The notes under the pieces are model-generated. The model did not search any database and was not told the DNA's origin. It was given only the letters and a program-made list of their open reading frames with translations. A stretch of DNA of 64,000 nt from Oligoflexales bacterium (lineage in GTDB: Bacteria; Bdellovibrionota_B; Oligoflexia; Oligoflexales; JAPPIL01): positions 2,087,127 through 2,151,126 of the forward strand of contig OZ245333.1 in NCBI GenBank assembly GCA_965226195.1, written 5' to 3'. Shown here in pieces: positions 10,895 to 59,466 of the stretch. How positions within the stretch are numbered: position 1 is the stretch's first letter; each line of letters opens with the position of its first letter. Made by a program: the position numbers and the translations under genes.

Positions 10895-11031
10895 CGGCTC
10901 GTTGCCGCTTTCTAGCTTCGCACGGTTCTTTGCCGCTTTCCTGCTTCGCACGGCTCGTTGCCGCTTTCCTGCTTCGCACGGTTCTTTGCCGCTTTCCTGC
11001 TTCGCACGGCTCTTTGCCGCTTTCTAGCTCC
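10895..11031. repeat. Tandem array, about 5 x 28 bp, of the CTTTGCCGCTTTC(C/T)(T/A)GCT(T/C)C repeat family
   Basis: Direct reading shows the unit ctttgccgctttcctgcttcgcacgg(c/t)t repeated head-to-tail. The array fills the gap between the GCS2 stop and the GDH start. Confidence 0.9.
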
Positions 11032-11034
11032 ACC

Positions 11035-12447
11035 TCATTGCCCCAGCAGTGCCGCCCACTTTTCTTCCAACTGCAACAACTGCTCAGGGCAAAGATAACC
11101 CTTGTCGCTATTCTTTACCAGCATCTGTATATCGGCAGCTGGTGTTTTGTTTTTCAGGGTAAAATGCTCGAAAAAAACTTGCAGGCGATTTTTTGCTCCT
11201 GTGCAGCGAAAACGTGGCGGCAATGCCTCCAAACCAGCAAGTGCCAGTTCCGTTAGCCAGTGCAGGCGTTGGTGAAAATTTGCCTCGACCCGTGCGAGAC
11301 CGTGACAAGCAAGATGCATCATTTCTTCTTGACGACCGAGTTCAGGCAACAATGCATCGAGCACGCGATCGAGATGGGGCGGGTGGTAGACGATGCCCAG
11401 ATAAAAGGCTACTGGTGCAGGTTGCCAGATGAGTGGTTGGCAGTCGATCGAACGCAACTCAAGATACCCACGCGGGCGCACTTCGGGAAAAAGAGTGTAG
11501 AGATGATCCCTAAAATCCTTGACAGTCGGACGCATGCCCTTGATTCCCACATCAAGCCAATCCAGAAAAGTGGTGCTGTGCTGCTTGTCGTTACCGAGTC
11601 GCACCACGAGTGCTTGCAGAGCAAAATCGAGATAAGCTTGCACACAGGCAGCACGGCTGCGTTCACGTGCGATTGCTTGTAGTGCAGGAAAACCTGTGCG
11701 AGTGCGGTCGAGTTCACGCCAGACGTGGGTGCGGAAAGTCTGCATCTGCATGTGATGGCGATCCCATACGCCAGATGTGGCAAACATTGCCGCGCTGTAG
11801 GGGGCGAGGAGATTGCAGACTAGGTAGCGTTTGGCCAGCAGGTCCTCACTTGCACCGTAGTCAAGGTTGACCTGTTGTGTGCAAGCTTGCTGCATCATGC
11901 GTCTGCCGATGGGGGAAAAGTGCCCGAAGTGATAGTCGAGCAGCAGGTAGGTGGTTTTGGGAATTTGCAAGCCGATCTCGCTTAGCGTATGCCACGGGTT
12001 GATGCCAAGTCGCAGCAGATGTATCGAGTGATGCGCGAGATGGGCAGCCAGTTTCTCTTGCACCACCCTACTACGGTTTAGCACCTTGTGCAGGTCGGTA
12101 TGTGGCTGCGAAGAATACTCAATCTGTCCGCCCGGCTCGAAGGTGAGGCTGTCGCCCTCGCCAAGATCGAGCCGCAGTGCTTCTTTAGATAACAGCTCGT
12201 CGCCCGCGTAGGTATCAGGCCAACCTTCCTGCAGAGCTAGGTCACGCAACATTGTGCGCAGCCCTTTCCCTTCAGCACTGAAGAACGGCACAACCGTCGG
12301 GAAGGAGTTGGCAGTAACCTGAGCCGCGATCATCTCGACTTCAATGCCAACGAGGTCATCGTCTGTGGCGCGCAGTGGGAACAGTTCGTCATGAACGATT
12401 TGAGCGCAGATGTCCTTGTCGATAGGGTAATCAGGTGGGTTGTTCAT
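11035..12447 (-). CDS. Glutamate--cysteine ligase family protein (GCS2 / plant-type)
   Basis: The ORF carries LVGIEVE and TFEPGGQIEYS motifs typical of family-2 gamma-glutamylcysteine ligases. The start is set at the ATG at 12447 (MNNPPDYP), 1 nt after the upstream gene's TGA. Confidence 0.7.
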   Translation of the reverse strand: MNNPPDYPIDKDICAQIVHDELFPLRATDDDLVGIEVEMIAAQVTANSFPTVVPFFSAEGKGLRTMLRDLALQEGWPDTYAGDELLSKEALRLDLGEGDSLTFEPGGQIEYSSQPHTDLHKVLNRSRVVQEKLAAHLAHHSIHLLRLGINPWHTLSEIGLQIPKTTYLLLDYHFGHFSPIGRRMMQQACTQQVNLDYGASEDLLAKRYLVCNLLAPYSAAMFATSGVWDRHHMQMQTFRTHVWRELDRTRTGFPALQAIARERSRAACVQAYLDFALQALVVRLGNDKQHSTTFLDWLDVGIKGMRPTVKDFRDHLYTLFPEVRPRGYLELRSIDCQPLIWQPAPVAFYLGIVYHPPHLDRVLDALLPELGRQEEMMHLACHGLARVEANFHQRLHWLTELALAGLEALPPRFRCTGAKNRLQVFFEHFTLKNKTPAADIQMLVKNSDKGYLCPEQLLQLEEKWAALLGQ

Positions 12448-13105: not shown

Positions 13106-13232
13106 CTTCTTCTCTCCCCCACTACCTTCCCTTTATCCTACCACACTTTCTCTCTCTGGCTACGGGGGGGTGTTTTGTGCCAAGACAGAACTCTTGACAC
13201 GCGAAGACATTTGGGTAGAATGCATTTTCTCT

Positions 13233-13306
13233 GCGGGCATAGCTCAGCTGGCTAGAGCGTCGCGTTGCCATCGCGAAGGTCGAGGGTTCAAATCCCTTTG
13301 CCCGCT
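13233..13306 (+). tRNA. tRNA-Gly (anticodon GCC)
   Basis: A hand-folded cloverleaf gives acceptor GCGGGCA/TGCCCGC, anticodon stem TCGCG/CGCGA, loop TTGCCAT, T-arm GAGGG-TTCAAAT-CCCTT and discriminator U. No CCA is encoded. Confidence 0.9.
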
Positions 13307-13307
13307 T

Positions 13308-13522
13308 TTTGTTTTTATGCGGGGAGCGTTCCCCTGGCTTTGTTGCATAAGTTCCGTTGATTATAACATGCTGTTACCATAGCACTTTTATGTGGGGAGC
13401 GTTCCCCTCCCCGCTTTGCGCGGCTCTTTGCCAAAGGCGTGCCCGAAGGCACGCCTAGCTCCACACCCCTGCGTGTTCGCAGACTTCTCGTTTGGGTCAG
13501 GTGCAATCATCCTGCTGCACCA
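13308..13522. repeat. Copy A of a ~215-bp near-identical duplicated non-coding element (partner at 24288-24499)
   Basis: Only a handful of mismatches and small indels separate it from 24288-24499. It contains GGGGAGCGTTCCCC motifs and the hairpin GGCGTGCC-CGAA-GGCACGCC (13436-13455), embedded in a split copy of the short-repeat core. Confidence 0.85.
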
Positions 13523-14153
13523 TTCACACATGTGTGAATGCTCTTTGTCGCTTCCTAGCTCCAGCTAACGCATTCGCGTGAAATGGTTCGCTGTGATGCT
13601 TCCTCCCGCCCCTGTGTAAACTTTTGCGGACAATGCAAACTTGTGTGTAACACGAGCAACTTCTCCATAACATCAATATGATCATTATGAGATTGTCAAT
13701 GCTCGGCACTATGCCTATACCCCAAAGAAAAACCCCGTATTAAAACTCGCGGCTTTAGAGGCAAGTTCAGATGATGGGCAGCACAAATATGCCAACACCT
13801 ATATCCATCTTTGCGGGCGAGGGTTGTTGTGACCCAAGCAGTGTGCCAGAAGGCACGCTGCTAATCCTTATTGCCAAAGGGCACAAGCAAGTGGAAGCTA
13901 GCAAGCAGCAAAAGGATTGCGTAGCACGCCCGGGAGGCCAAATGTTAGGCGCGCAAGGCAGACCTTGGCTAGCACTACGCCTGAGTGTACGAAGCGAGCT
14001 AGAGCGAGAAAGCGGCAAAGAGTTCGCGAAGCGAGCGTTACAAAAAAGCGGCGTAAGCTAGCATTCATCCATTCAGCTGCGTCCAGCAGCTGAAAAAAAA
14101 CAAAACAAGCTAATGATTAGTTTTTTTCTCGCAGGTTACGTATACTGGCGGGC

Positions 14154-16987: not shown

Positions 16988-17467
16988 CTATTCGCAAGCC
17001 TTTTCAGCCGTCACCCACGTGGTGACCTTTTCCTTGGTCAAGCCACCGAGCTGGTCTTTACCGGGATGCTCCTTGTCAGCGAGATCGCCAGTGAGATACG
17101 TCCACAGCTTGTCCGCATCGAGTAAATTTTTCTCCTTGACTTTAGCTAGCATGCCTTCTTTGTTGCTAGCGGCGTTGGTCTCACCTGCCTTCAGCGCAAA
17201 CCCACCCTCGTCAGTCGCACTCGAATGACAGCCAGAGGCATCACAACTGTCTGTCTTGATATGCGGCTGGATGTTGCTGGCAAACGCTGTCGATGCCGCA
17301 GGGCAACCGTCCGTTGTTTCTGTTGGTTCATTCTCGCCATTGCACTGCCACAACATCAATGCCGCGACAATCGCTACGCTAACCCTTTGCCGCTTTTTAG
17401 CTCCGCTAACTCTTTGCTGCTTTCTAGCTTCGCTAACTCTTTGCCGCTTTCTAGCTCCACGCATCAT
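16988..17467 (-). CDS. Putative lipoprotein with a CX4CH (heme-c-like) motif; paralog of 17756-18196
   Basis: Lipobox-like LMLWQC and the motif SCDASGCH, with a shared architecture with the neighbouring gene. The only available N-terminus consists of three 27-nt repeat units (ARKRQRVSE/ARKQQRVSG/AKKRQRVSV). Confidence 0.55.
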   Translation of the reverse strand: MMRGARKRQRVSEARKQQRVSGAKKRQRVSVAIVAALMLWQCNGENEPTETTDGCPAASTAFASNIQPHIKTDSCDASGCHSSATDEGGFALKAGETNAASNKEGMLAKVKEKNLLDADKLWTYLTGDLADKEHPGKDQLGGLTKEKVTTWVTAEKACE

Positions 17468-17496: not shown

Positions 17497-17754
17497 CTCT
17501 TCCTAGCTTCGCTAGACTCTTTGCCGCTTCCTAGCTCCGCTAGACTCTTTGCCGCTTTTTAGCTCCGCTAGACTCTTTGCCGCTTTTTAGCTCCGCTAGA
17601 CTCTTTGCCGCTTTTTAGCTCCGCTAGACTCTTTGCCGCTTTTTAGCTCCGCTAGACTCTTTGCCGCTTTTTAGCTCCGCTAGACTCTTTGCCGCTTTTT
17701 AGCTCCGCTAGACTCTTTGCCGCTTTTTAGCTCCGCTAGACTCTTTGCCGCTTT
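17497..17754. repeat. Pure tandem array, about 9 x 28 bp (unit AGCTCCGCTAGACTCTTTGCCGCTTTTT)
   Basis: Direct reading shows nearly identical units without spacers. They fill essentially the whole intergenic gap between the two CX4CH lipoprotein paralogs. Confidence 0.95.
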
Positions 17755-17755
17755 A

Positions 17756-18196
17756 CTAGCGCCCACTGCTACATTTTTGCTCAGCTGCTAACCATGCCGT
17801 GATGCCCTCCTCGGTGATGTGTCCTGCGGCAACTTGGTTGCCCCCACCATGGGTATCGTCAGTGATCTTGTCAAGCAGCACACCATCTCCCATCAGCCAC
17901 CTGTTGCGGTGAGAAATCATATTAGCCCGATTGCCGGTGGCGGTATCTTCGTTTTCTTTCTTTAGCAGCTCAAGTCCACCACCGGGAGCGTCGGCATCAC
18001 TGCCATGACAGCCTCCGCCGCTACACGATGCATCTATGGCAGTCTGGATATTTAGCTCAAAAGTATAGAGTGCTAGTTGGGGGCACTCTTTTCCTTCGAT
18101 TGGTGGTAGTTCGGGTGTGGGGGACTGTGGGTCGTTGTTCTCGTCGCTGCACTGCCAGATAGAGCACAGCAGCACGATGCACAAGATGCGCGCCAT
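17756..18196 (-). CDS. Putative lipoprotein with a CX4CH (heme-c-like) motif; paralog of 16988-17467
   Basis: Start chosen at MARILCIVLLCSIWQC (lipobox-like). Motif SCSGGGCHG and a conserved C-terminal ...TAWLAAEQKC. Confidence 0.55.
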   Translation of the reverse strand: MARILCIVLLCSIWQCSDENNDPQSPTPELPPIEGKECPQLALYTFELNIQTAIDASCSGGGCHGSDADAPGGGLELLKKENEDTATGNRANMISHRNRWLMGDGVLLDKITDDTHGGGNQVAAGHITEEGITAWLAAEQKCSSGR

Positions 18197-22379: not shown

Positions 22380-22482
22380 TTTTTCCGCGGCTTTTGCTAT
22401 CGTCGCATGTGTGCTATGCTGGAGCTAGAAAGCGGCAAAAAGTCTCCACGAGGCTTGAGTCTGATTGAAACAGAGGAGTGTT

Positions 22483-22962
22483 ATGGATACGGCTGGTTTT
22501 GCTAAAGTAAAGGGCTATCTCAACGAACTGGGATTGGCGATTATCAAGGAGGTTGCCGACGATGACCTGTTTATCGTGCAGGACGAGGACAACGGCATCA
22601 ACAATTTAGTTATCGATGTCGAAGACCCGATTGTTGTTCTCGAACAGTTTATCATGGACGTGCCTAAGCAGGGGCAGGAGTATTTTTATCGTCGCCTGCT
22701 GCAGATGAACCGCGCACTCGTGCACGGTGCATTTGTGCTCGATGGGGAGCTAGAAAGCGGCAAAAAGTTAGCGGCACAGCCGCTAGAAAGCGGCAAAAAT
22801 CTGCGACATGAGCGTAGCGAAGTGGTGGCACAACGTGTTTATTTTCGGGATACCTTGCAGCTGCAAAATCTTGATCTCAACGAACTTGAAGCTTCGATCA
22901 AGGCGTTGTCGCTAGGTTTGGCTGAAGTCAGTAGCGAGCTGATTGAATTTTCCAAAAACTAA
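22483..22962 (+). CDS. YjfI-like (DUF2170-like) protein paired with PspA, carrying two in-frame repeat units
   Basis: The ATG at 22483 is preceded by AGAGGAG, and the gene lies immediately upstream of a PspA-family gene, as in yjfI-yjfJ. The internal LESGKKLAAQP-LESGKNLRHE segment is encoded by repeat units at 22746-22800. The family call is tentative. Confidence 0.5.
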   Translation: MDTAGFAKVKGYLNELGLAIIKEVADDDLFIVQDEDNGINNLVIDVEDPIVVLEQFIMDVPKQGQEYFYRRLLQMNRALVHGAFVLDGELESGKKLAAQPLESGKNLRHERSEVVAQRVYFRDTLQLQNLDLNELEASIKALSLGLAEVSSELIEFSKN

Positions 22963-26556: not shown

Positions 26557-26853
26557 ATGTTGTCAGTAGCTGGGGCACGACGCGGATAGTTCGGCCTGAA
26601 TCTGTTGCTGACAACATATGACGCACATAGTTGCACGGTGAATTCTTTGCCGCTTTCTCGCTCTAACCTTTAAGCATAGCAGCACTGCTGGGTCAAAGCA
26701 AAAAATACGTCTGTACCTCTTGCGTAGCATGCGAAAATCGTTTCTAATTATACACAGAGCTAATTTTTACAATCGGGCTAGTTTGCTGCTGCGTTGACTG
26801 TCTGCTCGTAGCTTGGGGCTAGCTTATATTCGCGGGGAAGGGATATTTTTACC

Positions 26854-39104: not shown

Positions 39105-39180
<76 letters not shown>

Positions 39181-43148: not shown

Positions 43149-43877
43149 CTAGACACACCGCCGCAATAACTCTTCACACTGTTCAGTAGGCGGCTCAATC
43201 AACTCTGCCGCAAGCAAGCGCACAACCGCACGTGGCAATTCTTTGCGCAATGTGGCGCTTATTTTGTCTTGCTCGCTGTCTGGCACGATGTCAGCAAGAC
43301 CGCACAAGAACTGTGCATGCGTGCGTCCGGCGCGATAGTCAGGTTCACGCTGTGGGTGTGGCAGCAATGCCTCGATCTTGTCCACCTCTGCACGGTAGAG
43401 CAGCGAAGCCTGATAGAGGAGATAGTTGCGACTGCGAAAGATCGACGTGCCGCCTACCTTGCGTTCTCCCCAAGCAATATCGCTGATACCACGATGGCGC
43501 AAATCGGCCCACGCAGCACAATAGACAGCAAAACTTTCAATCAATGCGGTGTTGATACGCTCAAAGTAGTGCGCATTGTGAAAGTAACGCCCTACCCACA
43601 GCCCTATACTGACGATGATGCAGTACTGGTGCAAGACCACCGCTCCGCCGCCGCCCTTGCGCCGCAAGACAGAAACACCTTGTGCCGCACAGCGTTCCTG
43701 ATAGCACGCAGCCTCAGGGCTATCGCTGTTACCCAACACTACTATGTCGCGCTCAGGTGACCAGACTTGTGTGCAGATTTTTTGCCGACATTGGGCAATG
43801 ACACGGCGATCGATACCACTTGCTATGCTTGTAGGGCTGTTTGTCCGCTTTCTAGCTCCGACCAACGCCCGTATCAC
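43149..43877 (-). CDS. Lipoate-protein ligase/octanoyltransferase (BPL_LplA_LipB) family protein
   Basis: Motifs RRKGGGGAVVLH and GERKVGGTS are typical of the family. The N-terminal residues VGARKRTN are encoded by a repeat-family unit. Confidence 0.5.
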   Translation of the reverse strand: MIRALVGARKRTNSPTSIASGIDRRVIAQCRQKICTQVWSPERDIVVLGNSDSPEAACYQERCAAQGVSVLRRKGGGGAVVLHQYCIIVSIGLWVGRYFHNAHYFERINTALIESFAVYCAAWADLRHRGISDIAWGERKVGGTSIFRSRNYLLYQASLLYRAEVDKIEALLPHPQREPDYRAGRTHAQFLCGLADIVPDSEQDKISATLRKELPRAVVRLLAAELIEPPTEQCEELLRRCV

Positions 43878-44686: not shown

Positions 44687-44729
44687 GCTTCGCTCCGCTC
44701 GCTGGCTTGTTTGCCGCTTTCTTGCTTCA

Positions 44730-50140: not shown

Positions 50141-50680
50141 TCACGTTCCTCCACCAATACCTAGCGTAAAATGCTCAACCGACTTGTCCCGAAACGCGGC
50201 ATACTCGGCGATCGAAATCATCTGTGTCAAGCCATCCATCGTTGCCCTGATGACATTGTGAAAATTCTTTGTGCCATGCACCTTGCAAACGATGTCGGAA
50301 ATTCCTGCCAGTTCAACGATAACCCGCACCGCACCACCAGCGATAATGCCCTTACCTTTACGCCCCGGATACATCAGTACCCGTGACGAGCCATGACAGC
50401 CAATCGCGGAGAATGGAATCGTGCCGTCAACAATAGCAATCTCGGTTAAGCTCTTGCGTGCCCGCTCAGCCCCTTTGCGAATTGCCTCTGGCACTTCGGT
50501 TGCTTTGCCCAAGCCATAGCCGACTTTGCTCACCCCGTCGCCGACCACTACCGAAGCACTGAAACTAAAACGACGACCGCCTTTCACTACTTTCGCTACC
50601 CGTGCGACGTGAATTACCCGATCTTGCAGCCCTTCGGTGACAGGCTCGCCGCCAACTCCAAACGGATTCTTATTGGTCAA
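50141..50680 (-). CDS. rpsE: 30S ribosomal protein S5 (uS5)
   Basis: RVAKVVKGGRRFSFSASVVVGD...GLGKATEVPEAIRKG matches uS5. Confidence 0.95.
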   Translation of the reverse strand: MTNKNPFGVGGEPVTEGLQDRVIHVARVAKVVKGGRRFSFSASVVVGDGVSKVGYGLGKATEVPEAIRKGAERARKSLTEIAIVDGTIPFSAIGCHGSSRVLMYPGRKGKGIIAGGAVRVIVELAGISDIVCKVHGTKNFHNVIRATMDGLTQMISIAEYAAFRDKSVEHFTLGIGGGT

Positions 50681-51066
50681 AACTTCACTCCCCCTTCACG
50701 CACGCCCTCTGCTAGAGCTTTTAGGCGACCGTGATAATTGCAGCCATTGCGATCGAAAACTACCGTCTTCACTTCTTTTGCCAAACACGCAGCAGCTAGT
50801 TTCTGCCCCAGCACTTTGCAGTTTGCGACGTTCGCCCGTGAGGCTGCGCCACGCTTTTTGCCGCTTTCGCGCTCCAAATCATCTTTGCCGAACGAACTCA
50901 CCGCCACCAACGTATGCTGCTTCACATCGTCGATCACCTGTGCATAGATGTGCCGTGCTGAACGAAACACCGACAGACGTGGGCGCTCCGTCGTGCCGCT
51001 GATTTTCTTGCGAATACGCTTCTTACGCCGCAACAGCAGCATTAGCTTAAGTGTCTGCTTCTTCAT
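50677..51066 (-). CDS. rplR: 50S ribosomal protein L18 (uL18) with an apparent internal repeat-unit insertion
   Basis: RPRLSVFRSARHIYAQVID...FDRNGCNYHGRLKALAEGVREGG matches uL18. The internal LERESGKKRG is encoded by the repeat core at 50854-50875. Confidence 0.93.
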   Translation of the reverse strand: MKKQTLKLMLLLRRKKRIRKKISGTTERPRLSVFRSARHIYAQVIDDVKQHTLVAVSSFGKDDLERESGKKRGAASRANVANCKVLGQKLAAACLAKEVKTVVFDRNGCNYHGRLKALAEGVREGGVKF

Positions 51067-51620: not shown

Positions 51621-51631
51621 CTCTGCTCCTT

Positions 51632-51713
51632 ACTCCGCTCGTCGCAGGACTCTTTGCCACTTGCTAGCTCCTCACTCCGCTCGTCGCAGGACTCTTTGCC
51701 ACTTGCTAGCTCC
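51632..51713. repeat. Two tandem 42-bp units of the repeat family in the rpsH-rplF spacer
   Basis: actccgctcgtcgcaggactctttgccacttgctagctcctc is repeated at 51632 and 51674. Confidence 0.9.
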
Positions 51714-51714
51714 A

Positions 51715-52881: not shown

Positions 52882-53250
52882 CTACACTACCTCCGGTGCC
52901 AGCGATGCAATTTTGATAAAGCCGCGGTTGCGAATTTCACGTGCCACAGGGCCGAAAATACGCGTCCCAATTGGCTCGTTGTCCTTGTTGACCAGCACGC
53001 AGGCATTCTCGTCGAACTTAATCGTCGTGCCATCCTTGCGCTGCACTTCTTTCTTGGTGCGCACGACCACTGCCCGCTGCACGCTGCCTTTCTTGGTCTT
53101 GCTGCCCGGCAGCACCTCACGCACCGAGACGATGATAATATCGCCGGGTGCGGCATAACGTCGGTTCGTGCCGCCCGGAATTTTGAAACATTTCAAACGC
53201 CGCGCGCCTGAATTGTCCCCGCTCTGCAGAATGCTTTCCATTTGAATCAT
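52882..53250 (-). CDS. rplN: 50S ribosomal protein L14 (uL14)
   Basis: [24 protein letters not shown]...GPVAREIR matches uL14. Its TAG is immediately followed by the rplE ATG. Confidence 0.95.
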
Positions 53251-53576
53251 CTTGTCGCCACCCTTATGATTTCCAGCAGATTAAAGCTTTTGCGCTTGCT
53301 GCGTGGCCGACAGGGACGCACCAGCACCTCATCACCAAGCTGCGACTTGTTATCCTCATCGTGAAAGAGAATCTTCGTCGTGCGCTTAATATATTTGCGA
53401 TAGATAGGATGCTTGACCAAACGCTCAATCTTCAACGTGCGGGTCTTCGACAACGCCGCACTGATCACTACGCCTTTCAGCGTCTTGATGCGCGCTTTGC
53501 CTGCTTCGCTCGGCTTTTTGCCGCTTTCTGCTTCGCAGGACTCTTTGCCGCTTGCTCGCTCCGCTTCACTCGTCAC
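53247..53576 (-). CDS. rpsQ: 30S ribosomal protein S17 (uS17) with a repeat-derived N-terminal extension of about 25 aa
   Basis: The core [44 protein letters not shown] matches uS17. The N-terminal [26 protein letters not shown] is encoded by repeat units. The only in-frame start I can find is the GTG at 53576, which overlaps the rpmC end. Confidence 0.9.
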
Positions 53577-53818: not shown

Positions 53819-54259
53819 TTAGCTAGCTCCACGTGCCTGCTCCCATACATCTGTGTTCCGCATCAACAAACGTGTCTTGAAGGGCAGTTTCGAGCCTGCC
53901 AGCGTCAAAGCACGCGCGGCAATGTCGGCACTGACATCTGCCATCTCGTAGAGAATCAAGCCCGGCGCAACGGGCGAGACATAGTGATCGACCGCACCTT
54001 TGCCACTACCCATGCGTGTCTCTGCCGCTTTCTTGGTCACTGGCTTGTGAGGAAAAACTTTAATCCACACCTTACCACCACGCCGAATGTGACGCGTCAT
54101 AGCAATACGTGCTGCTTCAATCTGCCGTGCCGTGATGTAACCCGATTCGGTTGCCATCAGTCCGTAACTGCCAAACGCCAACTCCGTGCCACCCTTGCTG
54201 TTGCCTTTGATGCGCACCTTATGCGTCTTGCGAAATTTCATTTTTTTTGGTGCTAACAA
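53819..54259 (-). CDS. rplP: 50S ribosomal protein L16 (uL16)
   Basis: MLAPKKMKFRKTHKVRIKG...RMGSGKGAVD matches uL16. Confidence 0.95.
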   Translation of the reverse strand: MLAPKKMKFRKTHKVRIKGNSKGGTELAFGSYGLMATESGYITARQIEAARIAMTRHIRRGGKVWIKVFPHKPVTKKAAETRMGSGKGAVDHYVSPVAPGLILYEMADVSADIAARALTLAGSKLPFKTRLLMRNTDVWEQARGAS

Positions 54260-58585: not shown

Positions 58586-58882
58586 GTGGGACAGAGTAAA
58601 AAAACAGAACAGCTGACGATCGCAGCGACGCGGCGGGAGAAGACAGGCAAGGGTTATGCTCGCAAGCTGCGACGGGCGGAGCAATTACCGGGAGTGATTC
58701 TCGATCGCGGCAAAAGCACGGCGATTGAACTTGACCCAAAATTGCTGGGCAAGGTGTGGAAGAGTGGTAAGCGTTTTGTGCTGGAGTTGGATGGCGAAGC
58801 GCACAAGGCGCGGTTGCATGACGTGCAGATCGATGCGGTGAAACGCACACCGTTGCACGTTGACATCATGTATGAGCGGTGA
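58586..58882 (+). CDS. rplY: 50S ribosomal protein L25 (bL25, short form)
   Basis: 98-aa ORF: ...RREKTGKGYARKLRRAEQLPGVI...RTPLHVD, located upstream of pth. Confidence 0.8.
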   Translation: MGQSKKTEQLTIAATRREKTGKGYARKLRRAEQLPGVILDRGKSTAIELDPKLLGKVWKSGKRFVLELDGEAHKARLHDVQIDAVKRTPLHVDIMYER

Positions 58883-59466
58883 AGCTGCTCGTCGGGCTGG
58901 GTAATCCCACGCCGCACTACGCCTTTACCCGCCACAATGCAGGTTTTATCTGTCTCGACTTGCTGGCGACAGAGTATAGCCTGACGTGGACGGAGAAAAA
59001 AAAACTGCGGGCTTTGGTGGCGCAAGGTGAGGTATTTGGCACAAAGTGTCTTTTGCTGAAACCGCAGACATGGATGAACCATAGCGGTCAAGCGGTGGCC
59101 GCGGCGGTGAATTTTTTCCGCCTCATGCACGACGACGTGGTGGTCTTGTATGATGACCTCGACGTGCCCGCAGGACGAGTGAAGTGCAAGGACGCTGGCA
59201 GTAGCGGTGGACACAACGGCGTGCAGAGTGTCATTGATTGTCTGCACAGCCAAAATTTCCAGCGCATCAAGCTGGGGGTGGCACGTCCGCCAGAAGCGCA
59301 GCATTCGGGGGATGGGAGCGAGAAAGCGGCAAAAAGCAGACCCACGAGCGGAGAGGAGTGGGTGCTGGGAAAATTCAGTGCAGCTGAGCTGGAAGTTTTG
59401 CGCACAGAGATGTATGAACAGGTGCTGCTGCGGTTGCGGCAGATTTTCAGAGAAACGCAGGCTTAA
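58879..59466 (+). CDS. pth: Peptidyl-tRNA hydrolase with an apparent internal repeat-unit insertion
   Basis: KLLVGLGNPTPHYAFTRHNAGF and ...GGHNGVQS match Pth. The segment PPEAQHSGDGSEKAAKSRPTSGEE interrupts the usually short G.G.P....VL loop and contains the repeat core at 59315-59336. Confidence 0.9.
   Translation: MKLLVGLGNPTPHYAFTRHNAGFICLDLLATEYSLTWTEKKKLRALVAQGEVFGTKCLLLKPQTWMNHSGQAVAAAVNFFRLMHDDVVVLYDDLDVPAGRVKCKDAGSSGGHNGVQSVIDCLHSQNFQRIKLGVARPPEAQHSGDGSEKAAKSRPTSGEEWVLGKFSAAELEVLRTEMYEQVLLRLRQIFRETQA

Follow-up and report, generated by a model that had tools for sequence, protein, structure and literature searches.

The peptidyl-tRNA hydrolase gene (pth) in a 64,000-nt stretch of an Oligoflexales bacterium (contig OZ245333.1; the whole stretch is called the window below) raises two questions: how a copy of a short dispersed repeat came to be translated inside this gene, and whether the in-frame stop codon that the canonical repeat would bring was removed there specifically. 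Four features define the locus.

58879..59466, + strand: pth coding sequence, 195 aa, intact, host of the insert (PF01195, E = 3.9e-53)
59314..59355, + strand: 42-nt (14-codon) repeat unit GGGAGCGAGAAAGCGGCAAAAAGCAGACCCACGAGCGGAGAG, coding G146-E159 (GSEKAAKSRPTSGE); 42 nt above the empty site of the relative L007
59315..59336, + strand: the reported 22-nt repeat core (core match)
59320..59322, + strand: GAG codon (E148) where the canonical core has TAG

We consider it quite probable that one 42-nt unit of a dispersed family was inserted in the lid loop of Pth, and that the missing TAG reflects a fixation filter on which units this gene could accept.

We compared the reported core with the window sequence and with the codon phase of pth. 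The core at 59315-59336 reads GGAGCGAGAAAGCGGCAAAAAG and differs at a single position (59320, T to G) from GGAGCTAGAAAGCGGCAAAAAG, of which exact copies lie at 22421 and 22746 in the window. Its codons AGC (59317), GAG (59320) and AAA (59323) contribute to the peptide G-S-E-K-A-A-K-S, and in this phase the canonical core would give AGC TAG. The initial annotation had reported a repeat core inside pth read as this peptide, with GAG at the TAG position, and the window sequence and the AGC-GAG-AAA phase agree with it on both counts. It had also described a Pth loop about 15 residues longer than that of E. coli, which holds, the excess over the nearest empty-site ortholog being 14 residues. PDB Pth chains from solved structures aligned to residues 1-140 of the window Pth, and in the protein alignment the catalytic-site columns N9, H19, N67 and D92 were invariant and N113 nearly so. 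The pth DNA was base-for-base identical across three other, independent assemblies, which therefore ruled out an assembly artefact.

The family was then counted across the window, with the expectation taken from 100 dinucleotide-preserving shuffles of the 64-kb sequence. At up to 3 mismatches the 22-nt core matched 23 times against 0.00 expected, and at up to 5 mismatches 32 times against 0, so that chance matching was ruled out. One match, in rplP at 54018, appears to be native; with it excluded, 31 copies remain. The family core is GGAGC[T/G]AGAAAGCGGCAAA[A/G]AG, followed by a linker of 5-20 nt, and the pth copy agrees with the family core GGAGCTAGAAAGCGGCAAAGAG at 21 of 22 positions. The closest counterparts of the pth copy in the window lie in the ribosomal protein cluster:

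51625..51713, - strand: a pair of 42-nt units lying after the rpsH stop and ahead of the rplF start, in one subfamily with the pth unit (97% matches, period 42 and 2.1 copies by tandem repeat finder)

The 10-mer ACGAGCGGAG has only three occurrences in the window, one in the pth unit and one in each of the rpsH-rplF units, at an offset of 29 nt from the core start in all three. The pth unit and an rpsH-rplF unit, each 42 nt long, are identical at 34 of 46 aligned positions. This common offset and identity argue that the pth element is one complete 42-nt unit of a dispersed repeat family and not the core alone, with the 22-nt core as the unit's 5′ part. GGAG stands at either end of the pth unit, which leaves its boundaries uncertain by a few bases.

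A Pth protein search returned a graded series of relatives, and in a protein alignment of 23 homologs the extra segment was present only in close relatives and was variable among them. Two SEKAAK units were found in P0002, two GAGSKKAANTPTS units in each of P0004 and P0005, a single unit in P0003, and diverged inserts in P0007, P0008 and P0010. The insert was absent from P0006, P0009, P0011, P0012 and P0013 (74-86% identity) and from all more distant Pth homologs. At the DNA level, L007 (P0006) has the empty site CATTCAGGGGAGGATTGGGTG, relative to which the window is exactly 42 nt longer, and the site is empty in the DNA of L008 (P0013) as well. The pth gene of L004 carries two 42-nt units, both of the GCGAG type, and that of L005 two 39-nt units of the GCAAG type. 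The alignment of Pth orthologs that the initial annotation had proposed as a check thus showed the insert to be present or absent among relatives, with 0, 1 or 2 units. By housekeeping-protein identity to the window, L004 is the closest of these relatives (91.9%), and L005 and L007 are equidistant (~89%).

A collection scan with the core, carrying N at the TAG position, found OY282434.1, the chromosome of L007 (uncultured Oligoflexales), with at least 43 loci, 43 of which were used; the other core matches, among the matches listed, were singletons in unrelated taxa and chance-like. This chromosome holds at least 200 family copies, yet its pth site is empty, which argues that the insert is a lineage-specific gain and not a native loop. 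To judge from the empty-site orthologs, this family-rich chromosome included, the pth loop extension is a dispersed-repeat copy gained in this lineage, as the initial annotation had supposed in calling it a copy of the repeat family.

The insert is located in Pth's lid loop (Gly136-Gly150 by the numbering of S. pyogenes Pth), a segment that walls the substrate cleft on one side and whose conformation is known to differ between species (PMC4226762). An AlphaFold2 model of Pth from 34 homologs had a mean predicted local distance difference test score (pLDDT) of 92.5, with means of 52 for block 141-150 and 72 for block 151-160 and values below 50 at residues 145-147 and 149-151. The modelled insert-bearing Pth is most likely functional, with an enlarged and floppy lid loop.

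The same family was found in-frame in L18, S17 and a CesT-like protein of the window, and in S8 and L30 of relatives. In these homology-validated genes, the sense phases were 1 for Pth, 2 for L18, S17, L30 and the CesT-like protein, and 0 for S8 of a relative. The copies in these genes and in one further open reading frame (ORF) are located as follows.

50854..50875, - strand: core in rplR (L18; ORF 50677-51066, -), phase 2, LERESGKKR
53514..53562, - strand: two to three units after codon 4 of rpsQ (S17; ORF 53247-53576, -), phase 2
22746..22800, + strand: two units, period 33, phase 2 (ELESGKK / PLESGKN), TAG kept as C-TA-G, in a CesT_Tir_1-family protein (22465-22962, +)
17383..17458, - strand: three units, period 27, N-terminal in ORF 16988-17467 and in phase 0 (GARKRQRVS), before a hydrophobic segment
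L004:577-1104 (-), L004:2622-3062 (-) and L005:2816-3283 (-): L30 and S8 ORFs of relatives

The L18 insert consists of 11 aa (LERESGKKRGAA), and the ortholog alignment gave 0 units in L005, 1 in the window and ~2 in L004. In S17 the units sit directly downstream of the conserved MTSE start, and their number spans 0 to about 9 among relatives, with total protein lengths of 84 aa (L007), 93 aa (L005), 109 aa (window) and 163 aa (L004). The Pfam PF22550 match of the CesT_Tir_1-family protein is split in two around the insert. S8 of L004 and L005 has a repeat-derived insert of 15-24 aa in a hairpin loop, in phase 0 and with the TAG kept in L004 (GASQRQ), and in L30 of L004 a phase-2 array of ~107 aa (8 units) separates ...EYEL from the conserved RGAS* end. 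Upstream of the units at 17383-17458 there is a strong AAAGGAGG Shine-Dalgarno with an ATG; these units would form a translated Arg/Lys-rich N-terminus. With ELESGK at 22746, GARKRQ at 17437 and SEKAAK in pth, all three frames are used, in line with the initial annotation.

Each of the ~15 window loci runs in the same direction as its host gene or the gene downstream (8/8 intergenic, 7/7 in ORFs), and the arrays at 10895-11031, 17504-17754 and 51625-51713 each lie between co-directional genes whose orientation they share. The sense strand of every validated coding copy is the purine-rich strand; its frames read GARKRQ, ELESGK and S(E)KAAK, all hydrophilic, whereas the antisense frames, read by eye from the sequence, give stops or hydrophobic peptides, so that selection could explain the orientation bias. 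Co-orientation did not hold as a general rule: in OY282434.1, with crude ORF-based gene calls, orientation looked random, in that ~20 arrays were opposed to both neighbouring genes, 35 were mixed and 13 agreed with both.

The junctions were examined by setting filled against empty sites. At pth, GGGGAGGA becomes ...G-GGAGCGAG...GAGC-GGAG-AGGAG. At rpsH-rplF, where the target is the rplF Shine-Dalgarno, TGA-GGAGG-N5-ATG becomes TGA-T-(GGAGC...42 nt) x2-GGAG-CAGAG-ATG. At both sites the empty form has one GGAG and the filled form has GGAG at both ends of the insert. The rpsH-rplF spacer (51621-51714, -) measures 94 nt in the window vs 10 nt in L004, L005 and L007, where it consists only of TGA-GGAGG/GGGAA-N5-ATG, and the gain of 84-85 nt falls at the Shine-Dalgarno GGAG; the start of the truncated third unit now provides the GGAG ahead of the rplF ATG. 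In L18, the native TTCGGCAAAGA lies next to the repeat, whose CGGCAAAGAG end it matches, a GGCAAAGA microhomology. Together, the clean GGAG junctions and the L18 microhomology suggest microhomology-mediated insertion.

The units themselves showed no significant secondary structure: four unit types folded no better than shuffles (z-scores +0.34, -1.10 for the rpsH-rplF dimer, +0.88 and +1.88), and Rfam 15 at gathering score returned two tRNAs only and no repeat match in the whole window. The folding of the four unit types ruled out a hairpin or palindrome element resembling repetitive extragenic palindromic (REP) sequences, Rickettsia palindromic elements (RPEs) or MITEs (miniature transposable elements with inverted repeats); with no structure and no Rfam match, hairpin-dependent mobilisation of the REP, RPE or MITE kind therefore does not fit. 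The repeat family is tandem-prone, non-palindromic and abundant in this uncultured Oligoflexales lineage.

We propose that GGAG microhomology with another copy led, through illegitimate recombination or template switching, to insertion of the unit at a GGAG-containing spot of the lid-loop sequence of pth, a route that would also explain the co-orientation of the ~15 window loci. Since the unit is 14 codons long and free of stops in this frame, it would have left the Pth enzyme intact and, on translation, would add a disordered, hydrophilic loop (GSEKAAKSRPTSGE) to the protein surface. Slippage during replication would then have altered the copy number to give the 0, 1 or 2 units of the relatives. 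The GAG form of the core is a common one in non-coding copies, and an essential gene would admit only such a version in this frame. On this model, pth would be one case of a general process that also reached L18, S17, S8, L30 and the CesT-like protein. Microhomology insertion is offered here as a hypothesis, and we infer the insertion mechanism, the slippage and the selective neutrality of the inserts alike.

The initial annotation had explained the missing TAG differently: a canonical TAG-bearing unit would have landed in pth and its stop would then have been specifically mutated, stops being purged only in the frame where they matter. We find this quite unlikely. All phase-1 coding copies do lack the TAG, namely those in pth of the window (GAG), of L004 (GAG x2) and of L005 (AAG x2), and the TAG is kept in several phase-0 and phase-2 coding copies (CesT-like protein, L30, S8). 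However, many copies without it lie where a stop has no consequence. At the TAG position, 13 of the 31 window copies had TAG, 9 had TAA and the remaining 9 had another triplet, these last including intergenic copies (14001 and 26643, GAG; 10926-10982, AGG) and phase-2 coding copies in which a TAG would be harmless (L18, GCG; S17, GAG and CAG). A census of OY282434.1, covering 200 de-duplicated copies in 91 arrays in the listed loci, gave TAG in 135/200 and GAG in 62/200 copies, the latter mostly intergenic. The exact pth 22-mer itself occurs 20 times in these OY282434.1 loci, 19 of them called intergenic, and is also present in phase 2 within S17 of L004. These results indicate that GAG is a standard variant of the family. 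Moreover, pth is normally essential, and fixation of a TAG-bearing intermediate with later repair was therefore not possible; the support for specific purging comes from a single locus. The repeat origin, the use of three frames and the lack of TAG in phase 1 thus stand, whereas the restriction of stop loss to the place where it would matter does not, and the absence of TAG in pth is best read as survivorship of an existing variant, not targeted repair.

Two other accounts concern the loop rather than its stop. The insertion might be old and native to the lid loop, with the family likeness due to later gene conversion or the family itself seeded from such coding sequence. This seems unlikely, even though a second clade of Pth homologs (P0007, P0008 and P0010) has diverged inserts at the same site, that of L079 being ~69% identical by eye, in register and gapless: close relatives have clean empty sites, one of them nested among insert-bearers; the window copy matches the family core at all but one position and has a linker common to intergenic units; units were duplicated independently in L004 (42 nt) and L005 (39 nt); and five other genes have been entered by the same family. 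Alternatively, a larger lid loop might alter substrate access or partner binding and be kept by positive selection. The position of the insert in a wall of the substrate cleft (PMC4226762), its retention in several species and its identity in three samples could be taken that way, but copy number and sequence vary freely in close relatives (0, 1 or 2 units, diverged versions), the loop is predicted to be disordered, and these peptide-coding units recur in intergenic DNA as well as in unrelated proteins, which makes an adaptive role highly improbable. Several observations also weigh against our preferred reading, the insertion of one dispersed unit under a fixation filter. In the Pth tree, which is poorly resolved, the empty-site P0006 falls within the insert-bearers and the second insert-bearing clade stands beside the empty-site P0013, a topology that calls for more than one gain or for some precise losses. 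The inserts of the second clade are diverged, and canonical repeats were not seen in the 8-20 kb flanks of L078-L080, which are too little to judge whole genomes, because the flanks of L007 are also without copies though its genome has at least 200; the second clade may hold an older insert predating the present family. Flanking GGAG is clean in 2 of ~6 filled/empty comparisons, pth and rpsH-rplF, and not at the L18, S8, S17 and L30 junctions, so that a GGAG target-site rule was rejected. The OY282434.1 census rests on crude ORF-based gene calls, and the translation and activity of the insert-bearing Pth are predictions from sequence.

The remaining copies in the window lie between genes or at the 5′ ends of ORFs.

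17504..17754, - strand: intergenic array of a 28-nt unit, repeated 9 times in tandem (TAA/TAG types)
10895..11031, - strand: intergenic array, ~5 tandem copies of a unit of 28 nt (AGG and TAG types), beginning 3 nt past the upstream stop
22421..22442, + strand: solo canonical core upstream of the CesT-like gene
14001..14022, + strand: solo intergenic GAG-type copy (non-coding, without TAG)
26643..26664, - strand: solo intergenic GAG-type copy
13541..13562, - strand: solo intergenic TAG-type copy
13894..13915, + strand: solo intergenic TAG-type copy, 5 mismatches to the core
43838..43859, - strand: copy at the 5′ end of an LplA/B-like ORF; phase 0 if translated, may be 5′ untranslated region
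44707..44728, - strand: AAG-type copy upstream of or at the 5′ end of rplQ (L17), whose Pfam domain starts from ORF residue 51

In the two 28-nt arrays (17504-17754 and 10895-11031) the period is not divisible by 3, TAA/TAG stand in two registers, and no frame is open; inside ORFs the array periods are 27, 33 or 42 nt. Each 28-nt array starts soon after an upstream stop (3 nt at 11035, ~1 nt at 17756), with the first scored core 21 nt downstream. Selection for translatability acting on unit length was tried as an explanation for multiples of 3 and rejected: 26/31 arrays of OY282434.1 fit, but one amplified 36-nt subfamily dominates, and the arrays are therefore not independent. The long arrays of that chromosome hold 12-19 copies with periods of 18, 27 or 36 nt (L038:3553-4114, +; L055:2688-3069, +; L025:6966-7221, -). 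In L038, an ORF of at least 416 aa has the array, open in phase 2, across its initial ~190 codons; this may be an ELESGK-type, highly repetitive stretch of protein or an ORF-calling artefact.

The region 13106-14153 is ~1 kb without an ORF of at least 100 aa and contains a tRNA gene (13233-13306, +) together with three copies of the repeat, which lie on both strands; a perfect inverted repeat, CATTCACACATGTGTGAATG, comes after the copy at 13541 (-). The second tRNA gene of the window lies at 39105-39180 (-; Rfam RF00005, 66.8 bits). Unlike the canonical core, the variant core GCCGCTAGAAAGCGGC at 22779-22800 (+) makes up a perfect stem of 6 bp around an AGAA loop, which may be coincidence. In relatives, a BsoBI-type restriction-modification pair was found beside dnaB and ankyrin-repeat proteins near the ribosomal cluster (L007:13131-15447, -; L007:7646-8422, +; L005:14690-16294, -); the ankyrin-repeat proteins hint at a host-associated lifestyle.

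We compared the family with known systems of small repeats. Ordinary variable number tandem repeats (VNTRs) arise locally from a gene's own sequence, and Ehrlichia ruminantium has variable tandem repeats. The family resembles these in its in-frame, slippage-like variation in copy number (0/1/2 units in Pth, 0 to about 9 in S17, a ~107-aa tail in L30) and differs in that one sequence family is common to many unrelated genes and to intergenic DNA. Mycobacterial interspersed repetitive units (MIRUs), reportedly described by Supply and colleagues in 1997, are tandem units of 40-100 bp in the intercistronic gaps of operons, co-oriented with transcription and with stop and start signals at the unit ends. 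The rpsH-rplF array, whose 42-nt units end in TGA/TAA ahead of a GGAG and an ATG, is very similar, and three arrays in the window consist of co-oriented tandem units in intercistronic gaps. MIRUs are intergenic, however, whereas the units here are shorter and are also translated within conserved genes (pth, rplR, rpsQ and others). Like REP sequences, bacterial interspersed mosaic elements (BIMEs) and MITEs, the family consists of small, non-autonomous, dispersed repeats that are mostly intergenic, with a possible GGAG target duplication at two sites. It differs from them in lacking a palindrome or terminal inverted repeats and any Rfam match. REP sequences and BIMEs are imperfect palindromes and extragenic, and the present family has no palindrome and many intragenic copies; folding gave no inverted termini of the MITE kind, and GGAG duplication or microhomology was found at 2 sites only. 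An associated transposase was not identified, no search aimed at a REP-associated tyrosine transposase (RAYT) gene having been made.

The closest analogue is the RPE family: the repeats described here behave alike but do not have the structure that defines RPEs. RPEs are dispersed repeats found in-frame in many housekeeping genes (Ogata et al. 2000, summarised in PMC10969869). In both systems, repeats lie in-frame in unrelated housekeeping genes, are translated as extra segments compatible with the fold of the host protein, also have non-coding copies, and differ in presence or absence between related species. Translated in-frame insertions in conserved genes were found here in Pth, L18, S17, S8, L30 and the CesT-like protein. 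RPEs are, by the same account, ~150-bp palindromic single insertions; no stable palindrome of ~100-150 bp was found here, the folding z-scores referring to unstructured units of 27-42 nt. The present family, moreover, forms tandem arrays of up to 9 or more copies, varies in copy number inside genes and resides in Oligoflexales. Given the taxon and the unit length, sequence homology to the RPE family is unlikely. No description of these repeats or of this Oligoflexales group was found in the searchable literature. The event is thus of a known kind, as in Rickettsia, in a new, tandem and non-palindromic form.

A further, tentative possibility is that these repeats represent an undescribed selfish class of uncultured Oligoflexales, a "coding-compatible minisatellite" of short, purine-rich, non-palindromic units starting with GGAG that spreads at GGAG (Shine-Dalgarno-like) sites by microhomology or template switching and is open and hydrophilic in three frames. 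Spread at GGAG sites would explain both the position at intercistronic ribosome-binding sites and the co-orientation with genes. If this were true, the family would colonise and expand in pth, rplR, rpsQ, rpsH and rpmD, giving species-specific disordered loops and tails on ribosomal proteins.

The preferred reading, a dispersed unit inserted in pth and filtered at fixation, corrects the attractive idea of specific stop purging, since the pattern is that of ordinary survivorship from pre-existing variants. It carries a caution for annotation: length outliers and low-complexity segments in the core genes of these metagenome-assembled genomes are real and not misassemblies. The inserts also serve as natural maps of insertion tolerance in the Pth lid loop and in the loops and termini of ribosomal proteins. 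A short repeat family can invade essential, conserved translation genes (Pth, L18, S17, S8, L30) without inactivating them, and the copy number of its inserts changes between closely related species. This extends the concept of selfish DNA in protein-coding genes, known from Rickettsia, to another phylum and to a structurally different element, and the colonisation of the lineage's core translation genes by a short repeat family is the more interesting result.

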